From the sequence record JN882298: a DNA stretch of 42,608 nucleotides; one strand, given 5' to 3'. Source of the DNA: Escherichia phage phiKT. The notes under the pieces are model-generated. The model did no database searches and was not told the origin of the DNA. It saw nothing but the letters and a program-made list of their open reading frames with translations. Shown in pieces: positions 2,924 to 41,763 of the stretch; the stretch's first letter is position 1, and every line of letters begins with the position of its first letter. Made by a program: the position numbers and the translations under genes.

Positions 2924-4193
2924 TGAATTTCTCCGTAGTATCCGACATCGCTCTAAGTTCAAAGAGCGCATAGGCACTACGCCGCTGTATCTCTTCGAAG
3001 AGAAAACGAGAGATATTGTTAAGCTAATGAGCCGTTACTTTCGACAGTACAAATCAGCGGAGGTTATAGAGAAAGATGACTTCATCACTTGGATTAATGA
3101 ACTGAAGGGTGAGAAGTTTACGGATGCAGATAAGATTCTCTTTGATGCACTCATGGAAGATTTTGAGTACGACCTGTCCGCCGCCGCCGAGCAATTCCTG
3201 ACGGAGCGGTTGCAGGAGTCCGATTTAGTCTACAAAACCGCCGACCTTATTGAGAAATGGTCGAACGGTGATGAGATTGAAATTATTGAGCAAATGAAAA
3301 TCGTCACCGACAAAGCGGCATTTGGCCGTGCTGACCGGGACGGTATTAAAGTAGTCACAGAGTCGATTGAGGAGATTCTGGAGCACGCCGGGAGCAAGTG
3401 GGGATTCGAGTGGTCATTGCCAATATTAGCTAAGGCCATGCGACCCGCACAGCCGGGAGACATGATTCTCATAGCTGCCCGACCGGACCAAGGGAAGACT
3501 ACATTCATCGGTAACATTGTCCGGCCTTGGCTGGCACAACTGGATGAAATATTTCCCGATGAAGAACGCTGCATTCTCTGGCTCAATAACGAGGGACCGG
3601 GTACTCGTATCAAGCTCCGAAATTACCAATCGGCCCTCGGCCTGACTATCCCAGAAGTGGACCAGATGGCTCATACTCGTGGGATGCTGGACGAGGAATA
3701 CAGGAAGGTGGTAGCCAATGCCGACCGCCTGATTATCCTCGACGTCCACGGCAAGAACACGGCGCAGATTGAACGCAAAATTACGGAATTGAAGCCCGGT
3801 GTTATAGTCTGGGACATGCTGGATAAGGTGAAGTATGTTACAGAGGACGCTTTTAGGAACACTCGCACAGACGAATATCTTGAAGGCTTGTACTCATGGG
3901 TACGCGAATCCGGTGTTATATATGACTGCGTTAACGTCGTATCAACACAGTTATCCGGTGATGCTGAAAATATGCAGTATCCGCACCTAGGAATGCTCAA
4001 GGACTCAAAGACAGGCAAGCAAGGTACGGCTGATGCCATCATTACGTTCGGGTCGGTTGACACTTATCCCCGTACACGATTCATCGGTCTTACTAAAAAT
4101 AAGCTCAATATGGGCCGCGCTACGAGTCGCCTAGGCGAAGTCATATTCGACGGTGCACGTGGCTTAATCACTATGCCAGAGGTAGAGAAATGA
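2910..4193 (+). CDS. DnaB-like replicative DNA helicase
   Basis: Walker A (AARPDQGKTTF) and RecA-fold motifs; GTG start with GGGAGG RBS; overlaps the primase stop. Confidence 0.85.
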   Translation: MSLDSEFLRSIRHRSKFKERIGTTPLYLFEEKTRDIVKLMSRYFRQYKSAEVIEKDDFITWINELKGEKFTDADKILFDALMEDFEYDLSAAAEQFLTERLQESDLVYKTADLIEKWSNGDEIEIIEQMKIVTDKAAFGRADRDGIKVVTESIEEILEHAGSKWGFEWSLPILAKAMRPAQPGDMILIAARPDQGKTTFIGNIVRPWLAQLDEIFPDEERCILWLNNEGPGTRIKLRNYQSALGLTIPEVDQMAHTRGMLDEEYRKVVANADRLIILDVHGKNTAQIERKITELKPGVIVWDMLDKVKYVTEDAFRNTRTDEYLEGLYSWVRESGVIYDCVNVVSTQLSGDAENMQYPHLGMLKDSKTGKQGTADAIITFGSVDTYPRTRFIGLTKNKLNMGRATSRLGEVIFDGARGLITMPEVEK

Positions 4194-4777: not shown

Positions 4778-5057
4778 CCTGACTATCGGCGCATTTAGGA
4801 TAACCTCTGATGAACACAATTACATTCTGCACCAGTGCAAGCCTAAGACCAAGGGTAAGGACGTAGGAACTTTACATTGGGCGGTGGTCGGGTACTACAG
4901 CAGTCTGGAGCACGTCGCTGGTAATATCGCAAAGTGTGCCGCAGACGGCGTTACCGAAGGCTTCCCTATCTACCAACTCGACGACCTGAAGAAAGTAGAA
5001 CGGGCTATCTCAGAGGTAGGCACGGAACTGGTTAAGGCAATACAGGAGAAAATTTAA
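4764..5057 (+). CDS. Hypothetical protein
   Basis: Track ORF 4692..5057; internal ATG at 4764 with GAGGT RBS; TAATG overlap with the DNA polymerase start. Confidence 0.45.
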   Translation: MLKIDLTIGAFRITSDEHNYILHQCKPKTKGKDVGTLHWAVVGYYSSLEHVAGNIAKCAADGVTEGFPIYQLDDLKKVERAISEVGTELVKAIQEKI

Positions 5058-7450
5058 TGTCCTATGTAACGTTCGATTTGGAGACAACGGTCAAATCCTT
5101 GGCTAAACGCAAGGCCAGCCCGTTCCACCCGAACAATTTCATAGTGGCGATTGGTTGGAAACGACAAAACTGCTCTGTTCAGGGTAGTTACAGTAAAACG
5201 GGCGAGCACCATCCCAATTGGTTCGAAGGTCTTTTGGCAGGTACTAAATTACTTGTCGGCCAGAATATCAAATTTGACATTCTCTATGCTATAACCCGGT
5301 CCGAATCGGCATACGCCGCTTGGATGAAATGGGTAGAGGCCGGAGGAAATGTTTGGGATTGCCAGCTTGCCGAGTATTTACTGCGAGGTCAGGAACAATC
5401 AGCCCACATGTTGTCGATGGATGAGATGGTCGAGGAGTACGGCGGGAACACGAAGGTGGATGAAGTCAAAGCCATGTGGGAAGCAGGCTACGATACACCG
5501 GAGATTCCTGAAGACTTGCTGATGCGTTATCTCTGCGGTGAGACAAAGGATGATGGTACTCGCGTGTTCGGCGATATTGAGAACACCGAAGCAATCTTCC
5601 TCGGTCAATTGAAGAAGGCACGTAAGCGCGGCCACCTGAAGTCCATCATGCTTAACATGGGGAGCCTGTTGGCCTCCATAGAGATGGAAAAGAACGGTAT
5701 GGCCGTTGACCTGAAGCTGGGCTTAGAGCAAGCCGAGAAGCTGAAGGAAGCGTGCAACGAACTCCGCGAGAAAATGCAGCAGTACCTGCCAAGCGACCTC
5801 CCTTGCGAGTTTAACTGGGGTTCCGGGCACCACTTATCGGCCCTTATCTTCGGCGGCGCGATTAAGTACAAGCAGAAAGCCGAGATTCTGGATGACGAAG
5901 GCAACAACGTCTACCCGCAGATTAAGGCGGTTGGGTACGAAACAGTGACCGGGGACTTCGTTATACCGGGACACGGTATCTCAGAAGAACGTTTTCAGGA
6001 GATGGTCGAGGCCGGGAACATCGCCACGTACAAGGCTGGGAAGAAGAAGGGCCAATTCCGGTCCAAGCAGGTTAGCATTGATGACCTGTCCCGACCTAAG
6101 ACGAAGATTATGGAGTTCCGGTATAACATGCCGGGGTTCACGGAGCCGGACCCGAAGTGGGAGACGAAGCACGAAGGCGTTTATGCCACGAACGCAGACG
6201 TCATTGAGGAACTGGGAACGCGTGATGTACCGTTCCTGAAAGACCTCACCAAGCTCAACAAAATGGATAAAGACCTGACGACATACTATATCTGCGAAGA
6301 CCCTAAGAAAGAAGGTATGTTCAAAGGTATGTTGACGCTGGTCGGCGATGACGGCATTATCCACGGCAGTATTAACCACACCTCCACAGTGACCGGGCGA
6401 TTCTCTGCGAGCAACCCTAACCTCCAGAACATCCCCCGTGCGGACACTTCTGAAGTTAAGAAGCTGTTCATCTCGCGCTTCGGCGACGACGGCCAGATTA
6501 TTCAGTCTGACTTCTCGTCTCTGGAGATTTACGTTCAGGCATTACTCACAGGTGACAAGCAACTGCTGGCAGACCTGAAGAAAGGTCTGGACATGCACTG
6601 CGTTCGCGTCGCCAGTAAATTCGGGGTGTCTTATGAGGAAGCAGTCAAACGTTGTAAGAAGGATGTTAACGCGCCGGACTACAAGCTATGGAAGTCTCGC
6701 AGGACTGGATGTAAGGAATTTTCATTCCAACGAGCATACGGCGCTGGAGCGGCAGCAGTGGCGAACTCTACGGGGATGTCTATTGAAGACGTGCAGGACC
6801 TTATCAAGTTAGAGGACGAACGTTACCCGGAGATTGAACCATTCTATGCAAGAGTTACAGCAGCAATTAACGAAAGCCGAGTACCAACAAGTCTGTATGT
6901 ACATCATCCAGAGATACGGGGACTGTCTGTCTGCATCGGCAAAGGATTTTATAGAACGCCTGATGGGAAGAAATACACTTACCGAGAGTACCCTGCTCCG
7001 GCTGGTTTTATCAAACGCGGGGGTGCACACGCCTCCTTCTCGCCTCCTGAAATTAAGAACTACATTGTGCAGGGTACAGGTGGCGAGTGGGCGAAAGCTG
7101 CAATGTGGCTTGCAGTCCGCACATTCTATCGCTTCAACAACTTCGGAGGAAAGGCGCTCTTAGTCAACGTAGTCCACGATGCGGTGTATGTAGATGGCCA
7201 CAACGATGTACTCGTAGAGGCATGTGCGGCGCTGGAGGCATGTATGTTTGGTGCTAACGAACTCATGGAGTACCGCTTTGACTGGCAGGTAGATGCGCCA
7301 GTGCCTGCGGAAACAACATTCGGGGTAGCTATGTATTACGAGACTGGCGCGGATACCTTAGACGGCTTTAAGGACAAGGTTAAAGAGATGCGTATGTTAA
7401 ACAGAGAGTTATATTTAGGAGGCTATACCCCGTCATGGGAGAATGTATAG
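5057..7450 (+). CDS. DNA polymerase, family A, with 3'-5' exonuclease domain
   Basis: 797 aa; N-terminal exonuclease motif (FDLETT); Pol I-like palm/fingers signatures; conserved position in T7-like replication module. Confidence 0.9.
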   Translation: MSYVTFDLETTVKSLAKRKASPFHPNNFIVAIGWKRQNCSVQGSYSKTGEHHPNWFEGLLAGTKLLVGQNIKFDILYAITRSESAYAAWMKWVEAGGNVWDCQLAEYLLRGQEQSAHMLSMDEMVEEYGGNTKVDEVKAMWEAGYDTPEIPEDLLMRYLCGETKDDGTRVFGDIENTEAIFLGQLKKARKRGHLKSIMLNMGSLLASIEMEKNGMAVDLKLGLEQAEKLKEACNELREKMQQYLPSDLPCEFNWGSGHHLSALIFGGAIKYKQKAEILDDEGNNVYPQIKAVGYETVTGDFVIPGHGISEERFQEMVEAGNIATYKAGKKKGQFRSKQVSIDDLSRPKTKIMEFRYNMPGFTEPDPKWETKHEGVYATNADVIEELGTRDVPFLKDLTKLNKMDKDLTTYYICEDPKKEGMFKGMLTLVGDDGIIHGSINHTSTVTGRFSASNPNLQNIPRADTSEVKKLFISRFGDDGQIIQSDFSSLEIYVQALLTGDKQLLADLKKGLDMHCVRVASKFGVSYEEAVKRCKKDVNAPDYKLWKSRRTGCKEFSFQRAYGAGAAAVANSTGMSIEDVQDLIKLEDERYPEIEPFYARVTAAINESRVPTSLYVHHPEIRGLSVCIGKGFYRTPDGKKYTYREYPAPAGFIKRGGAHASFSPPEIKNYIVQGTGGEWAKAAMWLAVRTFYRFNNFGGKALLVNVVHDAVYVDGHNDVLVEACAALEACMFGANELMEYRFDWQVDAPVPAETTFGVAMYYETGADTLDGFKDKVKEMRMLNRELYLGGYTPSWENV

Positions 7451-7821
7451 AGCACACACAAGTGGGTGACCTGTTCGGATATGCAAACACCCGGCGCGGA
7501 GGACGTCCCATGAAGATGCACCGCGCCGTGTTCCTTGATGTGCATGGGTATCTGCCAGAAGTTGTCAGACATACGTGTGACAACCCGCGCTGTATAAATC
7601 CTGAACATCTGCTTGCAGGTACGCAGAAGGATAATATGAGGGACTGTGTTGAGCGCGGTCGGAGAACACCTCCACCGAGACACAACAAGCTATCACAGGA
7701 ACAAGTATTAGAAATACGACGTGGAACCACGCCAGCGAAAGACCTCGCCGAACGCTTCGGTGTGTCTAAAGTAACCATTTACAATGTACGCAAGTTAAAA
7801 AGAGGGTATTACCATGGCTAA
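7435..7821 (+). CDS. HNH endonuclease (homing-endonuclease-like)
   Basis: HNH motif region (HRAVFLDVHGYLP ... HTCDNPRCINPEHLLAGTQKDNMRD); overlaps the 3' end of the polymerase gene; alternative start at 7510 with GGAGG RBS. Confidence 0.75.
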   Translation: MGECIEHTQVGDLFGYANTRRGGRPMKMHRAVFLDVHGYLPEVVRHTCDNPRCINPEHLLAGTQKDNMRDCVERGRRTPPPRHNKLSQEQVLEIRRGTTPAKDLAERFGVSKVTIYNVRKLKRGYYHG

Positions 7822-8752
7822 GCAATTTTCAGTTTTGAAGAAGAAAGAACTGCTCGTAGACCAGACCAAAGCAAGCACTGGTGGTGACTATACGCCACCA
7901 GCGGAAGGTCTGGCCCGTGCCCGACTCGTCGCCTACGTCGAGGTCGGCAAGCACGAGAAGGTCAGTAAGCAATACGGCACCAAGGTCCAGAGCATGGTGC
8001 ATCTGACCTTCGAACTGTCCGGTCCGAAGTGGGAGCCGAAGAAGCTGGATGATGGTACTCTGATTCCGCAGCGTATCACCCTGAAAGAGAACCTGTCCAC
8101 TAACACCAAGGCGCGATTCTACAAGCTGTTCCTGAAGCTCCGCGATGGTCGTGAGGACATTACTCACTTCGCCGAAATGCTGGGTGAAGCCTGCCTCATC
8201 CGTATCAAGCACCGTGAGTACGAGGTGGATGCTGGCGGCAAGAAAGAGAAGCGCGTTGCGGTCGATGTGTACTCTCCAGACAGTGGCTGGTCAATCACCC
8301 CGCCGTACATCCTGAAAGATATTATGGATGAGAACGACGAACCGACTGGCGAGCAAGAGAAGAAGCACGTCACCGTCTCCGACCCGGTTAGTGACCTCCG
8401 CCTGTTCATCTGGGATTGCGCGGACAAAGAGCAATGGGACAGCCTGTACATCGAACCGGGTGACGGCGACCGCAGCAAGAACGTGTTCCAAGAACTGATT
8501 GTCAACGCGAAGAACTTTATCGGTTCCCCGGCTGAAGCAGCGGCACACGGCTCTGAATCTCTGGAGGCCATTCTGAAGGGTGGTAAGGGTGCCAGTGAGT
8601 CTGCCACTGACGATGATGATGATGACGGCTCAGAAGGCGCTGTAGAGGATAAGAGCAGCAAGAAAGCTACCTCTGTTGTGAAGAAGGTCGTTAAGAAGAC
8701 GGTAGAGGCTGAAAAGCCTGCTGACGAAGATGACTTAGGGGATATTGACTAA
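7814..8752 (+). CDS. Hypothetical protein with strongly acidic C-terminal tail (possible ssDNA-binding/recombination protein)
   Basis: 312 aa; C-terminus DDDDDDGSEG ... ADEDDLGDID resembles the acidic tails of phage SSB-type proteins; functional call is tentative. Confidence 0.5.
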   Translation: MAKQFSVLKKKELLVDQTKASTGGDYTPPAEGLARARLVAYVEVGKHEKVSKQYGTKVQSMVHLTFELSGPKWEPKKLDDGTLIPQRITLKENLSTNTKARFYKLFLKLRDGREDITHFAEMLGEACLIRIKHREYEVDAGGKKEKRVAVDVYSPDSGWSITPPYILKDIMDENDEPTGEQEKKHVTVSDPVSDLRLFIWDCADKEQWDSLYIEPGDGDRSKNVFQELIVNAKNFIGSPAEAAAHGSESLEAILKGGKGASESATDDDDDDGSEGAVEDKSSKKATSVVKKVVKKTVEAEKPADEDDLGDID

Positions 8753-9722
8753 CATGACAAAGTTCAAGCTGCCTAAAGACCTTGGTTCGATGGTGCAGCC
8801 TGAACCTGTTAGCATTGTTCCTGAAATGGTTAAGGGTCGCCGCTGCCACATCGACGGCGACTACTTAGCCTACTTCGCCGCTGGCGGTGAGAATATGCCT
8901 GTGAGCATATGCCGCCAAGTGGTTCGGGAACGCGCCGAGAAGTTCCGGGTGATGACAGGTTCGGAAAGCATTCTACTGCAACTATCCGATAACCGATGCA
9001 CGAAAGGCGACCGGGTGTTCATTAGTACCACCCAACCATACCAAGGCCAACGCCTGTCCGGCAAGAAGCCGGGTAACTGGCAGGCAACCCGCGAGTATAT
9101 CGACTCTGGTGCTCATGGCATTCCAATGAAGGTTTGGAAAACGCGAGAGGCCGATGACGGAGCGGCATACTGTGCCGAGACGCAGAGCGGAGGCTTAGAT
9201 GCCATTTGTACTAAAGATAAAGATTGGCGTATGTTTGCTGGCCTGCACTGTATCTGGGATACTTTCCAATTGGTGCAAGTCAACCCCGGAGACTTTCGCG
9301 TCGATGGTCCTGCTCCTGTTAAGGATAAAAACGGCAAGACCCCACTTCAAAAGTATTATGGTCATTTCTTCTTCTGGCAGCAGATGCTATACGGAGACAC
9401 GGCAGACCACATCCCCGGTATACACGGGATTGGCGAGGCCACTGCCGCCCAACTTCTGCTTGACTGTACTAATAACGCCGAAGCATTCGATGTTGTCGCT
9501 GATATTTACAGGAAAAAGAAACGGGAGGAGTGGTCTGATTATATGGTTGAGCAGGCTGCGCTTCTATGGATGCGAACTGACCGACACGCAGACCTGCTGG
9601 ATTTCCTCAAGATATTCCCGGAAGATGAGGAAATTATCATTGCTGCGGAGAAGATGAGGCAGCGTGTTCTCGAAGATAAGGCTACCTTAGAGAGCATACT
9701 CAAAGGTTACTCACATAAATAG
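8745..9722 (+). CDS. 5'-3' exonuclease (FEN/T7 gene 6-like)
   Basis: PIN/FEN-type acidic motifs (HIDGDYLAY ...); position after the polymerase as in T7-like phages. Confidence 0.8.
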   Translation: MTNMTKFKLPKDLGSMVQPEPVSIVPEMVKGRRCHIDGDYLAYFAAGGENMPVSICRQVVRERAEKFRVMTGSESILLQLSDNRCTKGDRVFISTTQPYQGQRLSGKKPGNWQATREYIDSGAHGIPMKVWKTREADDGAAYCAETQSGGLDAICTKDKDWRMFAGLHCIWDTFQLVQVNPGDFRVDGPAPVKDKNGKTPLQKYYGHFFFWQQMLYGDTADHIPGIHGIGEATAAQLLLDCTNNAEAFDVVADIYRKKKREEWSDYMVEQAALLWMRTDRHADLLDFLKIFPEDEEIIIAAEKMRQRVLEDKATLESILKGYSHK

Positions 9723-9732
9723 AGGGTATTCA

Positions 9733-10215
9733 GTGATGATGAAATTAACCCAATCCCTAATCCCTGTAGTAAGACGCAAGATGGCAGCAGAGCAAGGGAA
9801 CCGATGTCTTTTGTGCGAAGAGATTATGGAAGATAAGCAAATGGTTCTGGACCACGACCATGATACAGGCCACTGTCGCGGGGTTCTCCACAGAGGCTGT
9901 AATGCCATGCTCGGACATCTGGAAAACAACCGTGCCCGTCACCTGCTGAAAGACGACGACAAGTTCGCTACGTTCCTCGGGAACATCATGGCGTATATCA
10001 CCATGGACTGCTCGCACCAGCCACTGCACAGCACTCATAAGAACGCTGCGGAGAAGAAAGCCGCAGCATATGAGAAGTCCCGGAAGAAACTGGTAGCCTC
10101 CCGGATTGCCTCCAACCCAACCGCCGCCGACGCTATCAAAGCGAAGGAAAAGGCACTGCGTAAAGTACGTGCTGACCGTAACCGTCCTACTGTTAAAGGA
10201 ACAAATGATGCCTAA
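9733..10215 (+). CDS. Endonuclease VII-like Holliday junction resolvase
   Basis: Motif C-L-L-C ... DHDHDTGHCRGVLHRGCNAMLG matches the zinc-binding/HNH-like core of T4 endonuclease VII. Confidence 0.75.
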   Translation: MMMKLTQSLIPVVRRKMAAEQGNRCLLCEEIMEDKQMVLDHDHDTGHCRGVLHRGCNAMLGHLENNRARHLLKDDDKFATFLGNIMAYITMDCSHQPLHSTHKNAAEKKAAAYEKSRKKLVASRIASNPTAADAIKAKEKALRKVRADRNRPTVKGTNDA

Positions 10216-11182
10216 AACTAGCCTGATTGCACTATTCACCAAGGAACAACACCAATCAATCCTCGGTAAGCATCTGGATAACACTGCTGCTGCCAAGGCA
10301 TACAACGAACTGCTGGGCTGGAATAGCCCGGTGGTCTACCGCCAAGTTGTAGCGTACTGGCGCAAGATTTACATCGACCATGGTGGTAAGAAAGGCGAGG
10401 CTATTCGTGAAGAGAAACAAGCTGTTAAGCTGGTTCAGCCATCACCAAGTGACGATATTGGTAACACTGACGTCCCTGACGTGTGTCGCCGTATCCTTGT
10501 GGTTGGTGATTTACATGCTCCTTATACTCATCCCGACGCTATTGCTTTCCTTCGCCATGTCCGAGACAGTTATGTTCCTGACATGGTTGTTCAGGTAGGT
10601 GATGAGACGGACGGCCACGCAATCAGCTTCCACGACTCGGACCCGAATCTGGATAGCGCCGGGGTCGAATTAGAGAAAGCCAAACTTGTACTGGAGAAAC
10701 TACATGACTTGTTCCCTAACCTTCTCGTTTGCGATTCCAATCACGGAAGTCTGGTGTATCGCCGCGCTAAAGCTCACGGTCTTCCAGTACAGTTCATCAA
10801 GAAATACCGCGATATACTGTTCCCGGAGCACGGTGCTAAGAAGTGGAGTTGGGCGGATGCTTGGGTTCTTAATACCCCACTCGGCCCTGTACGGTTCCAG
10901 CATCAGGTATCTGGTGACTTCATGCTCAACGCAAGCCACGAACGAACGTCTCTCGTTCTGGGTCACGAACATGGTCGCTTTGAAGTGCAATACGCAGCTT
11001 CTTCCTCTGCGCTGTATTTCGGGGCTTATGCCGGGTGTCTGATTGACCGTAAGTCTCTGGCCTTTGCCTACGGTAAGTTGCACCGCAAGAAACCAATCCT
11101 CGGCGTGATGGTAATCACCGATGGTTGTCCGCAGTTAATCCCTATGCTGATGAACGAAGAAGGTCGTTGGGTCGGTCGCTAA
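10205..11182 (+). CDS. Calcineurin-like metallophosphoesterase
   Basis: Track ORF 10106..11182; ATG at 10205 with AAAGGAA RBS; motifs GDLHAPY, GDETDGH, DSNHG, GHEHG. Confidence 0.7.
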   Translation: MMPKTSLIALFTKEQHQSILGKHLDNTAAAKAYNELLGWNSPVVYRQVVAYWRKIYIDHGGKKGEAIREEKQAVKLVQPSPSDDIGNTDVPDVCRRILVVGDLHAPYTHPDAIAFLRHVRDSYVPDMVVQVGDETDGHAISFHDSDPNLDSAGVELEKAKLVLEKLHDLFPNLLVCDSNHGSLVYRRAKAHGLPVQFIKKYRDILFPEHGAKKWSWADAWVLNTPLGPVRFQHQVSGDFMLNASHERTSLVLGHEHGRFEVQYAASSSALYFGAYAGCLIDRKSLAFAYGKLHRKKPILGVMVITDGCPQLIPMLMNEEGRWVGR

Positions 11183-11222
11183 TTATACCGGGCAGGGATG
11201 CCCATTCAATTGAGGATAAGAT

Positions 11223-11942
11223 ATGTTAGTAATGCTCTCTGGCGCGATTGGCGCTGGCAAAGATACCTTCGGTGAGTTCCTGTACGACTCATTTGACAAG
11301 TTCGGCTACAACGTGGAAGTGGTGAAGTTTGCCGACCCCATTCGTGAAGCTGCATTTAAGCTCGGATTCAATCCAGATGACCGGGCAACCAAGGAAGTAC
11401 CTGCAATACGCCATTATAAACTCTCAGAACTTGATGAGGCCATTTTTACTACTCATACCTGCCTGACACCTTACGAGCGCCGAATGGTCGCTGTACGAGT
11501 TCACCAGAGATTAATTAACATCCGTAAGGAAAAGCACGATGGCATTTATAAACCTGTCGTCAGTACGCGGGAGTTTATGCAGGTGGTTGGCGGCACTGTC
11601 CGAGATGCAGATGTGGATTACTATATCAAACACATGTTATCCAATGTACCCGTTGGGCGAATTAACATCTGCACTGACTCTCGGTTCCTTAACGAGCAAA
11701 AAATCGGGGATTATTCAATCTACGTTGAGCGTCCAAACAACCCGCTGGCGGTTAATACTCTCGACGCCTCGGAAGCAGCACAAGCATCGCTCCGAGGGGC
11801 GGCGAAGAAAGTAATCCTGAACAACAGCACTCTGGATAATCTGGCAGAAATGGCAGACTATGTGGCTACAACACTAATTTCAAAAGGGTATTGTGATGAT
11901 GCAGTTAAAGAGTCAAGCGGAACTGGAATCCTTATCGAGTGA
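11223..11942 (+). CDS. P-loop kinase (dNMP/nucleotide kinase-like)
   Basis: Walker A (GAIGAGKDT) at the N-terminus; 239 aa; 3' end overlaps the RNAP start. Confidence 0.55.
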   Translation: MLVMLSGAIGAGKDTFGEFLYDSFDKFGYNVEVVKFADPIREAAFKLGFNPDDRATKEVPAIRHYKLSELDEAIFTTHTCLTPYERRMVAVRVHQRLINIRKEKHDGIYKPVVSTREFMQVVGGTVRDADVDYYIKHMLSNVPVGRINICTDSRFLNEQKIGDYSIYVERPNNPLAVNTLDASEAAQASLRGAAKKVILNNSTLDNLAEMADYVATTLISKGYCDDAVKESSGTGILIE

Positions 11943-14367
11943 ACGCGGCCTTGCCAAGCTGATGGCCGAGTGTGAGCAGGCTGAATCAGCGGGGCGTGCA
12001 TCCGGCGCGTTTTATGCCAAGCAGTTGTTAGAGCGTTTTGTTAACCGTATGGCCGAACGTATTGACCACGAGATGGCGAATCCGGGTGCTGGCCGCGCGA
12101 AAGCGCATAAGAAACTGGTCGCTGTGTTTGACTCAAAAGTCACTGCGTTTATTTCTGTATCAACCACATTGAATATGCTGATGGTCAACGAGCAGACACC
12201 GGGCACCAGCCTTAGTCGCGCCCTCGGCAATGCAATGTACAACGAACTGTTCTGCACCACGTTCGACGATGCCAACCCGGACCTGTTCCACACCATCTGC
12301 AAGGACTTGGATAAGCGCCAGAGCAAATCCAGCCGCCACCGCATGACTGTGCTGAAGAATCAGGCAGCGAAGAAGGGTATCGCGTGGGAGAACTGGACCG
12401 TCACCGAAATCCTTCAGGTTGGTGAGTGGTGTCTGGATAATCTGGTGTCAGTTGGCCTGTGCGAAACGCATACCGAGGTGTCTCGCGGTAAGGCGAAGAT
12501 GTACGTGGAACTGTCCGACGAGGCGCTGGGAATGATTGAGGATACCAAACGTCTGGTGTCCTTCTTCCGGCCCCAGCGCCTCCCGTTCGTAGAGAAGCCT
12601 CTGGACTGGACCGGGATTGTTGGTGGTGGCTACCATACTGCTCGTATGCAGAGTACGATGCCTCGTTGCATCAAAGCCAGCCCGACCCAGATGGATGTAC
12701 TCATAAAGCATCGTGACGACTACAAGGGTACGGTGGTGGCGTGCATTAACACTCTGCAATCGGTAGAGTGGCGTATCAACAAGCGTATTCTGGAAGTGCA
12801 GCAGCAGATGTTCCGTGGCTTTGAGCCGAAGAACAAGCCGGATGCGCTGGAGTGTCATAGCAAGGACGTTGAGGATTGGACAGAGGCAGATAAATCTCTA
12901 CACAGCCACTGGAAGAAGGAAATGGCTCGCTGGTACACAGAGCAGCGTGCAGAGCGTTATGCCGCTTCACGACATGCCTACACGTTGTCAGTGGCACGAG
13001 AGTTCGCTGACTACCCGCGTATCTGGTTCATGTACTTCGCTGACTGGCGGGGCCGTTACTACCCGGCCACCACAGGCATCTCGCCGCAGGGGACCGACAT
13101 CTCTAAATCCATGCTGGAGTTCGCCAATGGCAAGCCCATCTCTGACCCAATCGCAGAACAGTTCTTCTTCCTCCTTGGTTCAACTAAATTCGGATTCGAC
13201 AAAGGCTCTATATCCGAACGAGTTCAGTGGGTTCACGAGAATCACGAACTTATCATGGCGTGTGCCGACGAACCGCTACTTCATACTGATTTCTGGTACA
13301 GAGAGGCAGATAAGAAGACCCGTTACCAATTTCTGGCATGGTGTTTTGAATATGCTGAATACAAACGGTTCCCGGCTGGATTTGTATCACGACTTCCGGT
13401 ATCTCTTGATGGCACATGTAACGGCCTACAACACTATTCGGCGATGTTACGAGATTCGGTTGGTGCTAAAGCTACCAACTTGTTACCTGCTAACCGACCA
13501 AACGATATTTACGCGCAAGTCGCAGGCGTTGTCACCAACCTTCTTGAAAGCATGTCACCTGCTGACTTCCCGGCACTGACACGCGAATCTAAGCCTCTCA
13601 GCATCTATGAGGTGGATTTTTTCAGGAGGGGGTGGTTACACCACGGCATTAGCCGTAGCCTCGTTAAACGGTGCGTTATGACGTTACCTTACGGGTCCAA
13701 GAAGTTCAGCATGGGTCGCTTCATTAAGGGCGATTACATGCTGGATATTCACCCGGAAGAGTTCGACACCGACGACTACACCGACGCGGCGAACTTCCTT
13801 GGCGATATAGTCTGGAAGGCTATCGGGATGGTGGTAGAGAAGGCGGTCGGCGGCATGAGCTACTTTCAAGGCACCAGCCGAGCAATTACCCGCAAGAAAG
13901 ACGTTGAGGTCATCCAGTGGCCGAGCATGACCGGACTTCCAATTGTTCAGGATTATTGGAAGACAGAGTACGTACAGTTCCGCTCAGTACGTGGTGGTGG
14001 TGCTCGACTGAAGTGTCTGGTCGAAACGGACAAGATTGACAAGCTGGGACATGCCAACGGAATCGCACCCAACATTGTTCACAGTCTGGATGCAGCGCAC
14101 TTAACGTTCGTTACGCTGGCCGCAGCAAAGGCTGGCATTGACTCCTTCGCAATGATTCACGACGACTACGGAACCCACGCAGCCGACACAGCACTCCTGT
14201 TCAAGCTCATCCGTGAAGAGTTCGTCAAGATGTACGAGCAAGACCCTTTCACAATGATTGCTGAAGCTCTTGAAGCACAAGCAATATCCAAGTATGTTCC
14301 TGCCAGACCAGAGTTCGGCGACCTCGACTTACAGCAGGTCAATCACTCCGAATACTTCTTCCTGTAG
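11896..14367 (+). CDS. Single-subunit DNA-directed RNA polymerase (T7-like)
   Basis: Motifs DGTCNGLQHYSAM and HDDYGTH match T7 RNAP active-site motifs A/C; ~820 aa; followed by a terminator and a phage-promoter-like motif. Confidence 0.9.
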   Translation: MMQLKSQAELESLSSERGLAKLMAECEQAESAGRASGAFYAKQLLERFVNRMAERIDHEMANPGAGRAKAHKKLVAVFDSKVTAFISVSTTLNMLMVNEQTPGTSLSRALGNAMYNELFCTTFDDANPDLFHTICKDLDKRQSKSSRHRMTVLKNQAAKKGIAWENWTVTEILQVGEWCLDNLVSVGLCETHTEVSRGKAKMYVELSDEALGMIEDTKRLVSFFRPQRLPFVEKPLDWTGIVGGGYHTARMQSTMPRCIKASPTQMDVLIKHRDDYKGTVVACINTLQSVEWRINKRILEVQQQMFRGFEPKNKPDALECHSKDVEDWTEADKSLHSHWKKEMARWYTEQRAERYAASRHAYTLSVAREFADYPRIWFMYFADWRGRYYPATTGISPQGTDISKSMLEFANGKPISDPIAEQFFFLLGSTKFGFDKGSISERVQWVHENHELIMACADEPLLHTDFWYREADKKTRYQFLAWCFEYAEYKRFPAGFVSRLPVSLDGTCNGLQHYSAMLRDSVGAKATNLLPANRPNDIYAQVAGVVTNLLESMSPADFPALTRESKPLSIYEVDFFRRGWLHHGISRSLVKRCVMTLPYGSKKFSMGRFIKGDYMLDIHPEEFDTDDYTDAANFLGDIVWKAIGMVVEKAVGGMSYFQGTSRAITRKKDVEVIQWPSMTGLPIVQDYWKTEYVQFRSVRGGGARLKCLVETDKIDKLGHANGIAPNIVHSLDAAHLTFVTLAAAKAGIDSFAMIHDDYGTHAADTALLFKLIREEFVKMYEQDPFTMIAEALEAQAISKYVPARPEFGDLDLQQVNHSEYFFL

Positions 14368-14401
14368 TACCTCGGCCAAGGATGGCTACCCTCCCCCCTA
14401 T

Positions 14402-14420
14402 TTCGTCACCTACAATAGCA
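14402..14420. repeat. Exact 19-nt sequence ttcgtcacctacaatagca, copy 1 (intergenic, after RNAP)
   Basis: Identical 19-mer at 19222..19240 inside the scaffolding gene. Confidence 0.7.
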
Positions 14421-14453
14421 CACAATACCCTCAAACTGTTCGTTTTGAACACT

Positions 14454-14493
14454 AGCCTTGGCCTCTTTGGTCAGGGCTATTTTTTCTGTTTTT
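14454..14493 (+). terminator. Rho-independent terminator downstream of the RNAP gene
   Basis: ~10-bp stem (agccttggcc/ggtcagggct, one G-U and one mismatch) followed by a T-run (attttttctgttttt). Confidence 0.55.
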
Positions 14494-14533
14494 GGGTATT
14501 CGTTAAATATGGCTTGAAGCCTTGATATATGGG

Positions 14534-14560
14534 GTTTCCGCACATTATTTTAATAAGGGG
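14534..14560 (+). promoter_or_regulatory. Phage RNAP promoter-like motif, copy 1
   Basis: gtttccgcacattattttaataagggg; near-identical copy at 38018..38044; ends in a TATA-AGGG(AG) element like T7-type promoters. Confidence 0.5.
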
Positions 14561-14576
14561 TCTGGAGGGTGTTAAA

Positions 14577-14924
14577 ATGTTCCTTAAATTTTTACTTTGG
14601 TTAATTTCTAAGTTAAGCGAAAGCCAACTTAGTAAGGTAAGAGATTATTACCTGATTAGTGGTCCATACCGTAGTGAATTAGAAAGACTACATTCCCGGA
14701 TTAGTGAGTTAGAGGGTGCTCTTTCCTCCTCAGAGTCTGTACCAGAACCTGTTACAGAAATATTCAGTAGAATGAACTATGAGGTGTACGAATACTTTGA
14801 GCGTACAGTAAGTAATACTTCTGTAGCTAGTTCTACTACTGATTTAGAAGCTGGGTTTAAATTAGGTGTCCAGCATGTTCTCGCCAAGTTGAGGAATGGG
14901 TATGTCACACCGCGAAGTCTCTGA
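14577..14924 (+). CDS. Hypothetical protein, AT-rich accessory gene (N-terminal hydrophobic segment)
   Basis: Track ORF 14529..14924; ATG at 14577 with GGAGGGTG RBS; by eye much lower GC and different codon choice (tta, agt, aga) than neighbours. Confidence 0.5.
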   Translation: MFLKFLLWLISKLSESQLSKVRDYYLISGPYRSELERLHSRISELEGALSSSESVPEPVTEIFSRMNYEVYEYFERTVSNTSVASSTTDLEAGFKLGVQHVLAKLRNGYVTPRSL

Positions 14925-24559: not shown

Positions 24560-26869
24560 ATGGCAGGGCCAGAAACTTATTCAGTGAATACGCAGCGGCA
24601 ACAGGCTGCTGTTGCGCCACAGGGTCAATCTCTGATTCGCTCTACTGGCGCTGCCACTCGTCCCGCTACCGCTGCTCAACAGGGCAGCATTTCTTATGTC
24701 GGGGCGCAAGTGGCAGAGGAATCCGCCGCGTCCCAATACTCCCGTGCACAGAGCGACAAGACGACGGACTGGCTGTTAAAGGCCGCTTCCGCCATCATCG
24801 AACCAAAGATGCAGGCTCTTCAGTCCCAACAGGTGATGAAGGGTATTCAGGAAGCGGCAGCAGGGAAGTCGATTGATGAGATTAAGGACGCACCTCCGTG
24901 GTACTCCGCAATCTTCGGCGATAGCGATTTGGTTACTGCTGCCCGTGCTTATCAGGCACAGGCTGCGGTATCTAAGTTCGTAACCCAAGTACAGCGTGAC
25001 ATTCCGACGATGAACAATATGTCGCCGGAAGAAGCGCGGAACTACATGACCACCAAGTGGCAGGAGTTCCAGACCGGGGACATGATTACGGATGCCGTAG
25101 CGAACCAACAGTTCCTTAATGCGGCACCGGGCTTGTTTGAGCAATACAACAAGCAGAACTACAAGAACTGGCAGGAAACTGCCAAGGTTGCACAGCAGCA
25201 GGCGTACAGTGCCATGTCCGCCAGCTACAACCAGAAAGCCATGAGCTATGCGACGGACGGGACCATCTCCAAAGATGATCTTCTGAAATCGCAGGTTGAG
25301 CTGATTAACGGTCTGTCCTCGGTTGATGGTCAGACTTTTGAGTCGTGGTCCAGCAACTTGGTATCCGCTGTGCAGGATGCTGTTAACAATGGCAACTTCC
25401 ATTCGGTGACGGCGATAACTTCCTCCGGCTTACTGGACAACTTACCCCCTGACCAACAGTCCGCTATAGGTTCCATGATTCGTGCTGGTGAAGCCAAATC
25501 CATTATGGATGTGAGAATCACTCCAGAATACTCATCTCAGATTGCGGACCTGCAATGGGAACTGCGTACCGGGCAACTCTCCCCGCAGGATGTATTTCAA
25601 CGCACTGCGGTAATTAACGCCTCGGCCAAGGCCAAGTACGGGTACACGATGCCTCTAATCGGACCGGATGAGGTTGAGAGTTGGATGGGGACGTCAATTG
25701 GATTGATGTCCAATGAGACTAACCAATCACGTACTCAGGCTATCTCCGACCAGAAACGTCTGGCTCAGAAGACTGCTGATGAGGCTGCGCGTCAGGATGC
25801 GGAACGCCGGGAACTAATGCTGGGTGGGACCCGCTTCTCTTCGGGTGGGCTTATTCCTCCGGGAGAATCTACCGACCCAGTTAAGAAAGCTGGTGCTGGT
25901 ATGTTCGACCGTATGGAGCAGGTTAACCCCGGTAGCGGATATACGTCCCTAGTGAACCTCTACGCCAACAATAATGGTCTGGTCATCCCTACCCTACAGG
26001 CTCGCTTTCAGAGTGGCCTACAGACTTCTGACAAGACCGAATGGACGCCGGAGTTTGATGAATCCACTACCAAGCCGTTTATGCAGATGATAGCACAACA
26101 CGGTGGTCATAATGCGGCTGTTCAGTATTTCGGTGCTGGCGGTTATAAGAAGATGACCAACTACCTTTCTGCCATGAATAATGGTGTTCCCCAGCCGCTG
26201 GCGTATCATGAAGCCTTTGTGGAACCGCAGCGTCTGGGAGATACCGCCAACCTGACTAAAGAGGAACAGAAACTCTTACGCAAAGCGCTAGGTATGGTGT
26301 GGTATAAGAGGAACGGTAGGAGCGATTCTGCCACTGCTACCATCATGCAGTCCGCCGCTGGACATTATGCTGACCTGAAGGCAAACTCTCGGTACACGGA
26401 TGACGGCGAGAGAGCAGAGACAGCACTCAATCTGGCCCTAAATGATGGCAACATTGCCTCGTATGGGCGCTGGGCGTGGGACCGGGATAAGTCTGCAAAA
26501 CCTCTGCACGAGCAGGTTGGGCTGAGCAGCGACCAGACCTACGGTGTACTGTCCACGCATCTGGAGCGTATGCCGCAGTTCAAGGGGACCAATCTGGATA
26601 ACGCCTCGTTCATTGAGCGGGTTGACTCGGATGGTAACTCCGCCCTGCTGGTATACGTCCCTACTGGAGATGGTAAGTTCCGTATTGGTAGCGTATCCGC
26701 TGCTGACATCCGGGAAACGGCTAAGAAGATTCGTGATGCAGAGCGTGAGCACCGTATTAAGGTACATATGGAACTCAACAACCCGCCTATGCGCCGGGGC
26801 ACTGGCGAAGGCTTAATTAATACTGGTGGCGGTACTGGACTATTCTCAGGCGGTACTGGACAACGTTAA
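24560..26869 (+). CDS. Internal virion protein B
   Basis: 769 aa; position as T7 gp15. Confidence 0.65.
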   Translation: MAGPETYSVNTQRQQAAVAPQGQSLIRSTGAATRPATAAQQGSISYVGAQVAEESAASQYSRAQSDKTTDWLLKAASAIIEPKMQALQSQQVMKGIQEAAAGKSIDEIKDAPPWYSAIFGDSDLVTAARAYQAQAAVSKFVTQVQRDIPTMNNMSPEEARNYMTTKWQEFQTGDMITDAVANQQFLNAAPGLFEQYNKQNYKNWQETAKVAQQQAYSAMSASYNQKAMSYATDGTISKDDLLKSQVELINGLSSVDGQTFESWSSNLVSAVQDAVNNGNFHSVTAITSSGLLDNLPPDQQSAIGSMIRAGEAKSIMDVRITPEYSSQIADLQWELRTGQLSPQDVFQRTAVINASAKAKYGYTMPLIGPDEVESWMGTSIGLMSNETNQSRTQAISDQKRLAQKTADEAARQDAERRELMLGGTRFSSGGLIPPGESTDPVKKAGAGMFDRMEQVNPGSGYTSLVNLYANNNGLVIPTLQARFQSGLQTSDKTEWTPEFDESTTKPFMQMIAQHGGHNAAVQYFGAGGYKKMTNYLSAMNNGVPQPLAYHEAFVEPQRLGDTANLTKEEQKLLRKALGMVWYKRNGRSDSATATIMQSAAGHYADLKANSRYTDDGERAETALNLALNDGNIASYGRWAWDRDKSAKPLHEQVGLSSDQTYGVLSTHLERMPQFKGTNLDNASFIERVDSDGNSALLVYVPTGDGKFRIGSVSAADIRETAKKIRDAEREHRIKVHMELNNPPMRRGTGEGLINTGGGTGLFSGGTGQR

Positions 26870-36660: not shown

Positions 36661-37109
36661 ATCTGACCGCAGCGGAGAAGTTAGTTCGACATTTTGAAGG
36701 TCTGAAGTTAGAAGCGTACCTGTGCCCTGCTGGTAAGTGGACTATCGGGTACGGACAGACCAAGGGTATTAAGGAAGGTATGGTGTGGACCAAGGCTCAG
36801 GCCGAAGCAGATATGTCTGCCACTGTCCGACGCTTTGCCGAAGAAGTACGTCAACTGGTCCGCAAGGATACGACCGACGCTGAACTAAGCGCATTCACTT
36901 CTCTGGCCTATAACATCGGTACTCCAAACTTTAAGACGTCCTCTGCTCTGCGTTGGCATAATGCCCGTGAGTCCGCGTCCAAGGTGTGCGCTGGTATCCG
37001 TATGTGGAACAAGGCCACCGTCAATGGTAAGAAGATTATCCTGAAGGGTCTGGTACGTCGCCGAGAGGCTGAATGCTCCGTATACACAACTGGAGACTTT
37101 AATGAGTAA
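36657..37109 (+). CDS. Endolysin, phage lysozyme (GH24 T4-lysozyme-like muramidase)
   Basis: N-terminus MNLTAAEKLVRHFEGLKLEAYLCPAGKWTIGYGQT aligns with the T4 lysozyme catalytic Glu/Asp/Thr region; GTG start overlapping the upstream stop. Confidence 0.85.
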   Translation: MNLTAAEKLVRHFEGLKLEAYLCPAGKWTIGYGQTKGIKEGMVWTKAQAEADMSATVRRFAEEVRQLVRKDTTDAELSAFTSLAYNIGTPNFKTSSALRWHNARESASKVCAGIRMWNKATVNGKKIILKGLVRRREAECSVYTTGDFNE

Positions 37110-41525: not shown

Positions 41526-41763
41526 AGCAGCGAACGATGATCATTACAACGAGAAAACAGCGGTGGCAGAGGCACAGAAGCGCCAGCGGGATATAAATAT
41601 GGCCTACTATACACGCGTGCCGCCGTTTTACGTGTTCCAGTGTGGTACGGACGGAAACCAGTTTGGTTACGTCACCAAGTACGGCTATTGTGACGTTGGT
41701 TTTAATAGCTTCGCAGATGCCACAGAGGCGGCGGAGGAGTACACACAGAGGGTAGAGCTATGA
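41518..41763 (+). CDS. Early hypothetical protein
   Basis: Strong RBS (AGGAGG); 81 aa. Confidence 0.5.
   Translation: MFEAANDDHYNEKTAVAEAQKRQRDINMAYYTRVPPFYVFQCGTDGNQFGYVTKYGYCDVGFNSFADATEAAEEYTQRVEL

Follow-up and report, generated by a model that had tools for sequence, protein, structure and literature searches.

The stretch of Escherichia phage phiKT DNA analysed here (sequence record JN882298, 42,608 nucleotides, referred to below as the window) carries a short string, RAGGGTATT, immediately ahead of three genes of its replication module, which encode a protein with an acidic tail, endonuclease VII and the phage RNA polymerase. The analysis indicates, with a probability of about 0.85, that the three strings are ordinary Shine-Dalgarno translation-initiation regions, which came to look alike by convergence and are not a recombination signal. 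They represent an already known kind of feature, the ribosome-binding site (RBS). The argument is built on properties that can be observed directly: the positions of the strings, their complementarity to the anti-Shine-Dalgarno sequence, the reading frames around them, the pattern of conservation among relatives and the variation in gene order. A previous sequence-only reading of the window had pointed out the recurrence at these gene starts and had named the three genes, and both observations are borne out; it had also proposed that the strings, beyond serving as RBSs, are joints at which related phages recombine. The former role agrees with the spacing and with the predicted pairing to the ribosome, while the latter is unsupported by the comparisons described below.

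Positions and predicted ribosome-binding properties of the three strings

RAGGGTATT starts at positions 7802, 9722 and 11884 and ends 0–5 nucleotides (nt) before the first candidate start codon of the respective gene; with one more letter on the left it reads AGAGGGTATT at 7801–7810 and 9721–9730, and AAAGGGTATT at 11883–11892. Site 1 (7801–7816, plus strand) consists of AGAGGGTATTACC followed by ATG, and would provide the acidic-tail protein gene (7814–8752, plus strand, 312 amino acids (aa)) with its Shine-Dalgarno sequence, spacer and start codon, the ATG at 7814 being located 3 nt past the motif. Site 2 (9720–9741, plus strand) begins with a TAG that overlaps GAGGGTATTCA and continues into GTGATGATG, offering GTG 9733, ATG 9736 and ATG 9739 as tandem candidate starts of the endonuclease VII gene (9733–10215, plus strand). 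Site 3 (11883–11901, plus strand), in which AAAGGGTATT is followed by GTGATGATG, is a weak predicted Shine-Dalgarno sequence with GTG 11893, ATG 11896 and ATG 11899 as candidate starts of the T7-type single-subunit RNA polymerase gene (11896–14367, plus strand). The Pfam scan, which took in 8 proteins of the window, identified endonuclease VII (PF02945 at 3e-15) and the RNA polymerase (PF00940 at 2.8e-88, with PF14700 also matched). The 312-aa protein, taken from the list of open reading frames (ORFs) and homologous to gp22 of Escherichia phage PGT2, has no Pfam match, and its C-terminal end reads DDDDDD...ADEDDLGDID.

All three sites can pair with the 3' end of 16S rRNA (GAUCACCUCCUUA), with calculated energies of -6.9 kcal/mol (site 1), -7.0 kcal/mol (site 2) and -4.5 kcal/mol (site 3). 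The pairing runs through GAGG/AAGGG, with or without AUU, and the energies fall in the middle to lower range of 44 initiation regions (-14.3 to -2.9 kcal/mol). The distance from the GAGGG core to the start codon is 7 nt for ATG 7814, 6, 9 or 12 nt for 9733, 9736 and 9739, and 4, 7 or 10 nt for 11893, 11896 and 11899, which places the core ~4–12 nt ahead of start codons opening conserved genes with Pfam or homologue support. Local RNA folding is no better than that of shuffled sequence (minimum free energy z-scores of +1.1, +0.3 and +2.3 for sites 1, 2 and 3), the region of site 3 being less structured than 198 of 200 shuffles. Similar cores of the GAGGG(G)TA type precede other genes as well, e.g. 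GAGGGTAAT ahead of the scaffold gene (18447), GAGGGGTAT ahead of the primase gene, GAGGGTAGA ahead of the gene at 41760 and GAGGGTGTT ahead of the gene at 14577.

Three other assignments were considered and rejected. A phage or host promoter or terminator lacks any consensus match at the sites, whose common sequence spans at most 10–15 nt: the plus strand between 7300 and 12100 contains no promoter-like site (the only two hits lie elsewhere, on the minus strand), and no terminator-like site was found at the three motif positions. A known structured RNA is at odds both with the Rfam search of the region 7000–14700, which gave no match at E <= 1, and with folds weaker than those of the shuffles. 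Finally, an unusually strong RBS is ruled out by pairing energies that range from average to weak.

Conservation was analysed in a small set of relatives. phiKT is a phiKMV-like coliphage of the Autographiviridae, of the phiKT/PGT2 type, and the genes of the window are densely packed and all encoded on the plus strand. PGT2 (genus Ermolevavirus) is 93–95% identical to the window, its record being circularly permuted relative to the latter. It is the sole relative of the whole genome found at the nucleotide level in a phage collection, and the IMG/VR search for close relatives returned PGT2 itself only; a scan of JGI metagenomes yielded two partial contigs and the protein-cluster route eight further contigs, among which L005 alone is close at the nucleotide level. 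The resulting comparison set comprised PGT2 (L001) and ten contigs of wider relatives, cited below by their L numbers. Across these ten relatives only the purine core of the strings is kept, and the TATT occurs, outside the window, only in PGT2 and L005, L013 matching it in part.

Taken together, these features suggest the following picture. Each of the three genes would begin at one of up to three candidate start codons, which a short A/U-rich spacer separates from a Shine-Dalgarno core (GAGG or AGGG), and all three genes would be part of a dense one-directional phage operon, with the cores placed in, or directly against, the 3' ends of the upstream ORFs. This placement of the core is the classic layout for translational coupling, and the reading frames suggest that the three genes are coupled in this manner; likewise, the ribosome probably does use the three sites. 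The letters in common would stem from three independent sources, namely the end of an HNH gene (site 1), the initiation region of endonuclease VII (site 2) and codons of the dNMP kinase gene (site 3), and the likeness would reflect convergence (on a purine codon followed by a Gly and a T/A-rich one) together with some chance. The string stands in different registers, AGA GGG TAT in the HNH gene and AAA GGG TAT in the dNMP kinase gene, with GAG GGT ATT at site 2 shifted by one base. Common descent of the three copies by duplication was rejected because of these differing reading frames and the unrelated upstream genes.

How unusual is the recurrence?

The recurrence of the string is real and nominally, if modestly, above chance, as judged post hoc. 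RAGGGTATT occurs six times in the window against 0.39 expected, a number reached by none of 100 shuffles; GTGATGATG is found at sites 2 and 3 only (two copies versus 0.42 expected), and 8 of 100 shuffles reach two. An 8-mer common to at least three initiation regions was obtained in 3.7% of within-region shuffles. The pairwise repeats among the sites (D12, D13) are not unusual in length, because 39 direct-repeat families of at least 12 nt are present in the 7.7-kb region. Half of the RAGGGTATT copies (3/6) lie away from gene starts. Two of them, both AAGGGTATT on the plus strand, are in-frame codons for K G I at places with no translation start: one (24839–24847, AAG GGT ATT) belongs to a late gene and is kept in PGT2, the other (36762–36770) is located within the endolysin gene. 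The third, GAGGGTATT at 14424–14432 on the minus strand, is intergenic, past the RNA polymerase gene, and has no gene downstream of it. The minus strand of the same region (14380–14435) carries GAGGGTATTGTG, which matches the RNA polymerase start region over 11 nt in inverted orientation, a likeness that is probably due to chance; a second GAGGGTA lies ~35 nt from GAGGGTATTGTG, and both are intergenic past the RNA polymerase gene and kept in PGT2.

Some observations weigh against an explanation by ordinary RBSs and convergence only. AGGG is present in 9 of the 44 initiation regions, and in 3 of these 9 it is directly followed by TATT, for which a composition model gives P ~0.004, a value judged after the fact. 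Moreover, sites 1 and 2 agree at 14 of 15 nt (TAAA[A/T]AGAGGGTATT), and sites 2 and 3 both carry GTGATGATG. The identity among the sites somewhat exceeds what the RBS function alone accounts for, which leaves room for a small extra cause; a cassette borne by a homing endonuclease, a shared RNA-binding factor and gene conversion are the candidates.

A shared factor would make the string the operator of a common post-transcriptional regulator (a RegA-like repressor or a processing enzyme) acting on three DNA-metabolism genes, and the nominally non-random recurrence of 8–10 identical nt over the RBSs of one functional class is in its favour, yet we regard it as scarcely credible: the genes and their order are conserved more widely than the string, which is limited to the phiKT clade, no common structure or Rfam match was found, no candidate RNA-binding regulator turned up among the 8 Pfam-scanned proteins or in the PGT2 annotation, and two further copies reside inside unrelated late genes.

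Site 3: codons of the dNMP kinase gene

Site 3 is contained wholly in the codons AAA GGG TAT TGT GAT GAT GCA (K G Y C D D A) of the dNMP kinase gene (11223–11942, plus strand), which shares its last ~50 nt with the RNA polymerase gene. All nine relatives that span the junction show this overlap too, and the kinase peptide K/R-G-Y/L-C/A-D/N-D-A is conserved (KGLCDDA in L007, KGLCNDA in L004, KGYCNDA in L013 and RGYADDA in L010). The nucleotides at the site drift, with equivalents such as AAGGGGTTATGTAACG (L004), AAGGGTTATGCG (L007) and AGAGGGTACGCAG (L010), and the TATT is lost in L003, L004, L007 and L010.

The RNA polymerase encoded downstream shows no more than 36% identity to anything from beyond the genus. 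Its gene in the PGT2 record is without 502 base pairs (bp) of the 3' part (window 13788–14289; about position 18898 of L001), and the annotated length is 656 aa in PGT2, compared with 823–824 aa in the window and 806–833 aa in relatives with a complete gene. The gap probably reflects an assembly error (454/Newbler) or a defective genome.

Site 1: the 3' end of an HNH homing endonuclease gene

Site 1 lies within the final codons, AGA GGG TAT TAC CAT GGC TAA (R G Y Y H G *), of a gene encoding a 128-aa HNH homing endonuclease (7435–7821, plus strand; Pfam HNH_3 at 2.3e-10 and the helix-turn-helix family HTH_7 at 3e-5), which overlaps the acidic-tail protein gene by 8 nt. The global alignment of the window, L005 and PGT2 places the HNH gene directly past the stop codon of the DNA polymerase gene (5057–7450, plus strand). 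The HNH gene is present at this junction in the window and in L005, where site 1 is identical, and absent from PGT2, L006 and L010–L012. The equivalent of site 1 in PGT2 is GAGGGTAATTAATA-ATG: the HNH-free junction reads ...TTC GAG GGT AAT TAA TA-ATG, and the RBS is supplied by the C-terminal Glu-Gly codons of the polymerase. L006 (equivalent GAGGAAGCCGCATA), L010 and L012 build the RBS of the acidic-tail gene from other C-terminal Glu codons of the polymerase. In the window and L005 the polymerase-derived RBS is displaced by ~370 nt, its role being taken over by the final HNH codons. In addition, the C-terminal codons of the polymerase are changed from ATG AAC GAC to TTA GGA GGC (ATGAACGAC to TTAGGAGGC), and this change created the AGGAGG Shine-Dalgarno sequence of the HNH gene itself.

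Segmentation by a hidden Markov model (HMM) and alignments delineate a tract, 7165–7835 (plus strand), that is divergent from or absent in PGT2. It comprises the 3' end of the polymerase gene (~70% identity), the HNH gene and 22 nt at the beginning of the gene that follows, and its flanks are 99–100% identical. Judged from the alignments, it looks like a co-conversion tract around the HNH insertion.

Further HNH genes are found at gene junctions of the relatives, overlapping their neighbours: L005 3349–3747, 13615–14040 and 14457–15002, L001 7451–7852 (PGT2 gp17), L013 166–573 and L015 2501–2884. The genes at L005 3349 and L005 14457 and PGT2 gp17 take over both the start codon and the RBS of the resident gene, and the L005 genes re-use even the resident first codons (ATGTCCT, ATGGGA). 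A new Shine-Dalgarno sequence for the displaced gene is provided by the HNH 3' end at L005 3349, in PGT2 gp17, in L013 and in L015.

Site 2: the predicted initiation region of endonuclease VII

The first G of site 2 is also the last letter of the TAG stop codon of the 5'-3' exonuclease gene (8754–9722, plus strand). The site is conserved in PGT2 and L005, and diverged yet recognisable in L013 (AAGGATATTTCGTG), L006 (GAGGGTGATTTGGT) and L010. The initiation region of endonuclease VII diverges gradually, from GAGGGTATTCAGTGATG in the window through AAGGATATTTCGTGATG in L013 and GAGGGTGATTTGGTATG in L006 to GCGGGGTATTGAAATG in L010, and L003, L006, L007 and L012 possess an ATG immediately ahead of AAATTA/AAGCTA, at the position of ATG 9739 of the window. 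This region persists with any upstream gene, be it the exonuclease (window, PGT2, L005), an HNH gene (L013) or a gene of ~200 aa (L006, L007, L010–L012).

The latter gene, situated in more distant relatives between those of the exonuclease and endonuclease VII (L006 9369–9950, L007 373–987, L010 5357–6010, L011 5366–6001, L012 5417–6001 and L013 1–170), is missing from the phiKT clade and shows a weak match to Pfam Gad2 in 3 of its 6 copies. Its C-terminal E-G-x-L-x-stop codons form the RBS of endonuclease VII. Site 2, read as GAG GGT ATT CAG TGA (E-G-I-Q-stop), resembles its C-termini (REGDLV*, DEGRLI*, SEGRLF*, AEGRIV*), and we suggest, with moderate to low confidence, that site 2 may be the retained 3' end of a ~200-aa gene lost from the phiKT clade.

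An HNH gene could have left such a trace as well. According to this explanation, the C-terminal K/Q-R-G-Y codons of the HNH family, together with the spacer and ATG, make up a portable start cassette that the element would leave ahead of any gene it inserts beside; site 1 would represent a copy still in residence, and site 2 a scar left by one since lost. Site 1 is indeed the 3' end of the HNH gene itself, and KRGYYHG, KRGFTYV and QQRGY occur as C-termini in the family; the HNH gene of L015 (52% identical), located between primase and helicase, ends with CAA AGG GGG TAC TGA CC-ATG, i.e. with R-G-Y codons and ACCATG as at site 1. A member of the same family (49% identity) is found directly upstream of endonuclease VII in L013, and the 14 matching nt of sites 1 and 2 include AGA GGG TAT in frame at both. 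However, it is the other frame of site 2, E-G-I-Q*, with which the 3' end of the L013 gene (AAG GAT ATT TCG TGA) aligns, and since this frame also fits the ~200-aa gene C-termini (REGDLV*, DEGRLI*, AEGRIV*), a relic of the ~200-aa gene accounts for site 2 no less well than an HNH scar. Moreover, PGT2 exhibits GAGGGTA between the exonuclease and endonuclease VII genes though it is without an endonuclease gene there, the conserved dNMP kinase codons fully explain site 3, and the matches are short. We therefore consider a portable HNH cassette unlikely as the source of the three strings; for the origin of site 2 taken by itself, a relic of the ~200-aa gene and a relic of an HNH gene both come into question.

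Do the strings mark recombination joints?

The remaining alternative to ordinary RBSs is the role put forward by the sequence-only reading, with the identical 9–10-nt strings serving as short homologous linkers where related phages swap gene modules. The pattern of similarity between the window and PGT2 is strongly mosaic; recombination patches have been reported also in PMC5773715. Breakpoints were identified with a two-state HMM run on the whole-genome alignment of the window with PGT2, which gave 130 boundaries, and were looked for at the three junctions relative to PGT2 and the other relatives. No enrichment over other gene starts was detected, in a comparison that rests on few genomes because close relatives are scarce; this is the outcome that the sequence-only reading had itself named as refuting its proposal.

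Several features of the junctions do agree with linkers. Gene content differs among the relatives at the polymerase/acidic-tail protein and exonuclease/endonuclease VII junctions, the latter being occupied in L006, L007 and L010–L013 by the extra ~200-aa gene, an HNH gene or both; site 1 is 22–33 nt from the right end of the 7165–7835 replacement or insertion tract; and a patch divergent from PGT2 ends at ~11949, some 50 nt beyond site 3. However, the distances from the motif to the nearest of the 130 boundaries (29, 77 and 27 nt) are no shorter than for three random gene starts (P = 0.08–0.16, depending on the minimum patch size) and only marginally shorter than for random positions (P = 0.03–0.14). 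Gene content varies at 2 of the 3 motif junctions, but also at 5 of the 7 motif-free junctions between the primase and RNA polymerase genes, and the junction of dNMP kinase and RNA polymerase is unbroken in 9/9 spanning relatives. One of the four large indels that separate the module from PGT2, the HNH gene of the window, touches a motif copy; the other three are the PGT2 HNH gene gp17 between primase and helicase, PGT2 gp26 before the dNMP kinase gene and the 502 bp within the RNA polymerase gene. The motif is also absent from the genomes with alternative arrangements. Efficient homologous recombination needs roughly 20–30 nt of identity, and the 9 nt available here are well below that length. 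Furthermore, the copies are direct repeats, and an exchange between them would delete the intervening genes of the replication module. Thus, a linker function of the strings appears very improbable.

The clearest exchanged module of the region has motif-free edges. The metallophosphoesterase ORF (10205–11182, plus strand) shows 73–80% nucleotide identity to over 400 podophages belonging to other genera (phages of Klebsiella, Cronobacter, Yersinia and Pectobacterium); this homology does not extend past either end of the ORF, and the neighbouring genes are without such matches. L003, L004, L007 and L012 contain no phosphoesterase-sized gene as in the window. By these comparisons the metallophosphoesterase gene represents a horizontally exchanged single-gene module. 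It occupies a hypervariable segment between the endonuclease VII and dNMP kinase genes, which contains, depending on the genome, the phosphoesterase, an RNase-H-like gene or small ORFs. This segment extends from the stop region of endonuclease VII (GTTAAAGGNAANAATGATG) to a small conserved hairpin that precedes the dNMP kinase gene, and RAGGGTATT forms neither edge. The hairpin, GGGCA-GGGA-TGCCC at ~11189–11203 in the intergenic region 11183–11222, has its GGGC/GCCC stem kept in PGT2 and L004, and the extra PGT2 gene gp26 ends directly 5' of it; the hairpin may serve in RNA processing, as a terminator or as part of a promoter.

Patches that are 68–80% identical to PGT2 inside sequence of 98–100% identity were also observed at 2969–3146, 8819–9408, 10685–11032 and 11522–11795. 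Several of these low-identity patches begin or end in the middle of a gene, hence recombination joints in the genus are not confined to gene boundaries.

The finding of three ordinary RBSs is of small importance in itself, and it removes a speculative recombination signal. What the comparisons bring out is a phiKT/PGT2-type genus that is strongly mosaic, and whose gene insertions, mostly of HNH genes, occur exactly at start codons, taking over the resident RBS and carrying a new one in their own last codons. Such a pattern of insertion would place look-alike start cassettes at the edges of gene cassettes without these cassettes causing recombination.

Comparison with known systems

Among known systems, the PeSL cassettes of T4-type phages come closest to the concept of a recombination-promoting gene start (Arbiol et al. 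2010, PMC2839356; Comeau et al. 2014, PMC4122927). PeSLs are repeated regulatory sequences at gene boundaries, with a Shine-Dalgarno sequence and start codon at their end, which mediate insertion, deletion and replacement of genes between close relatives (PMC2839356, PMC4122927). They are long composite intergenic elements in which an AT-rich tract and sigma-70 -35/-10 boxes are combined with a stem-loop terminator and the Shine-Dalgarno sequence, and about 50 copies per genome are concentrated in hyperplastic regions, with indel end points inside them (PMC2839356). The phiKT string, in contrast, is 9–10 nt long, stands at a gene start in three instances and does not flank the variable segment. 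The phiKT sites exhibit neither the sigma-70 -35/-10 boxes with the AT-rich tract nor, at any of the three positions, a stem-loop terminator, their folds being weaker than those of shuffled sequences; of the large indels relative to PGT2 one in four touches a copy, with no enrichment over other gene starts. A modular linker would be expected to remain the same beside alternative genes, and at the phiKT junctions only the G-rich core persists (alignments A2–A4).

The sites differ likewise from the promoters of T7-group RNA polymerases, a conserved block of ~17–23 nt that recurs ahead of transcription units, as they share at most 10–15 nt and two of them lie inside the upstream coding sequence. 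Site 1 has a closer counterpart in the free-standing HNH homing endonuclease genes of T7- and T4-like phages, since it is placed at the 3' end of such a gene with a divergent, co-conversion-like flanking tract; the junction HNH genes of L005, PGT2, L013 and L015 are similarly located exactly at start codons and bring a new Shine-Dalgarno sequence for the displaced gene. HNH insertion covers only site 1 and perhaps site 2, and it relies on homology of the flanks once a double-strand break has been made, rather than on a 9-mer.

The three strings agree best with the Shine-Dalgarno regions of T7-group phage operons: a purine core complementary to the 16S rRNA 3' end is separated from ATG or GTG by a short A/U-rich spacer, it is embedded in or abuts the 3' end of the upstream gene, and the local RNA structure is weak. 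Nothing essential sets the phiKT sites apart from these regions; their particular traits are cores of average to weak pairing strength, three tandem candidate starts (GTGATGATG) at two of the sites and TATT at all three.

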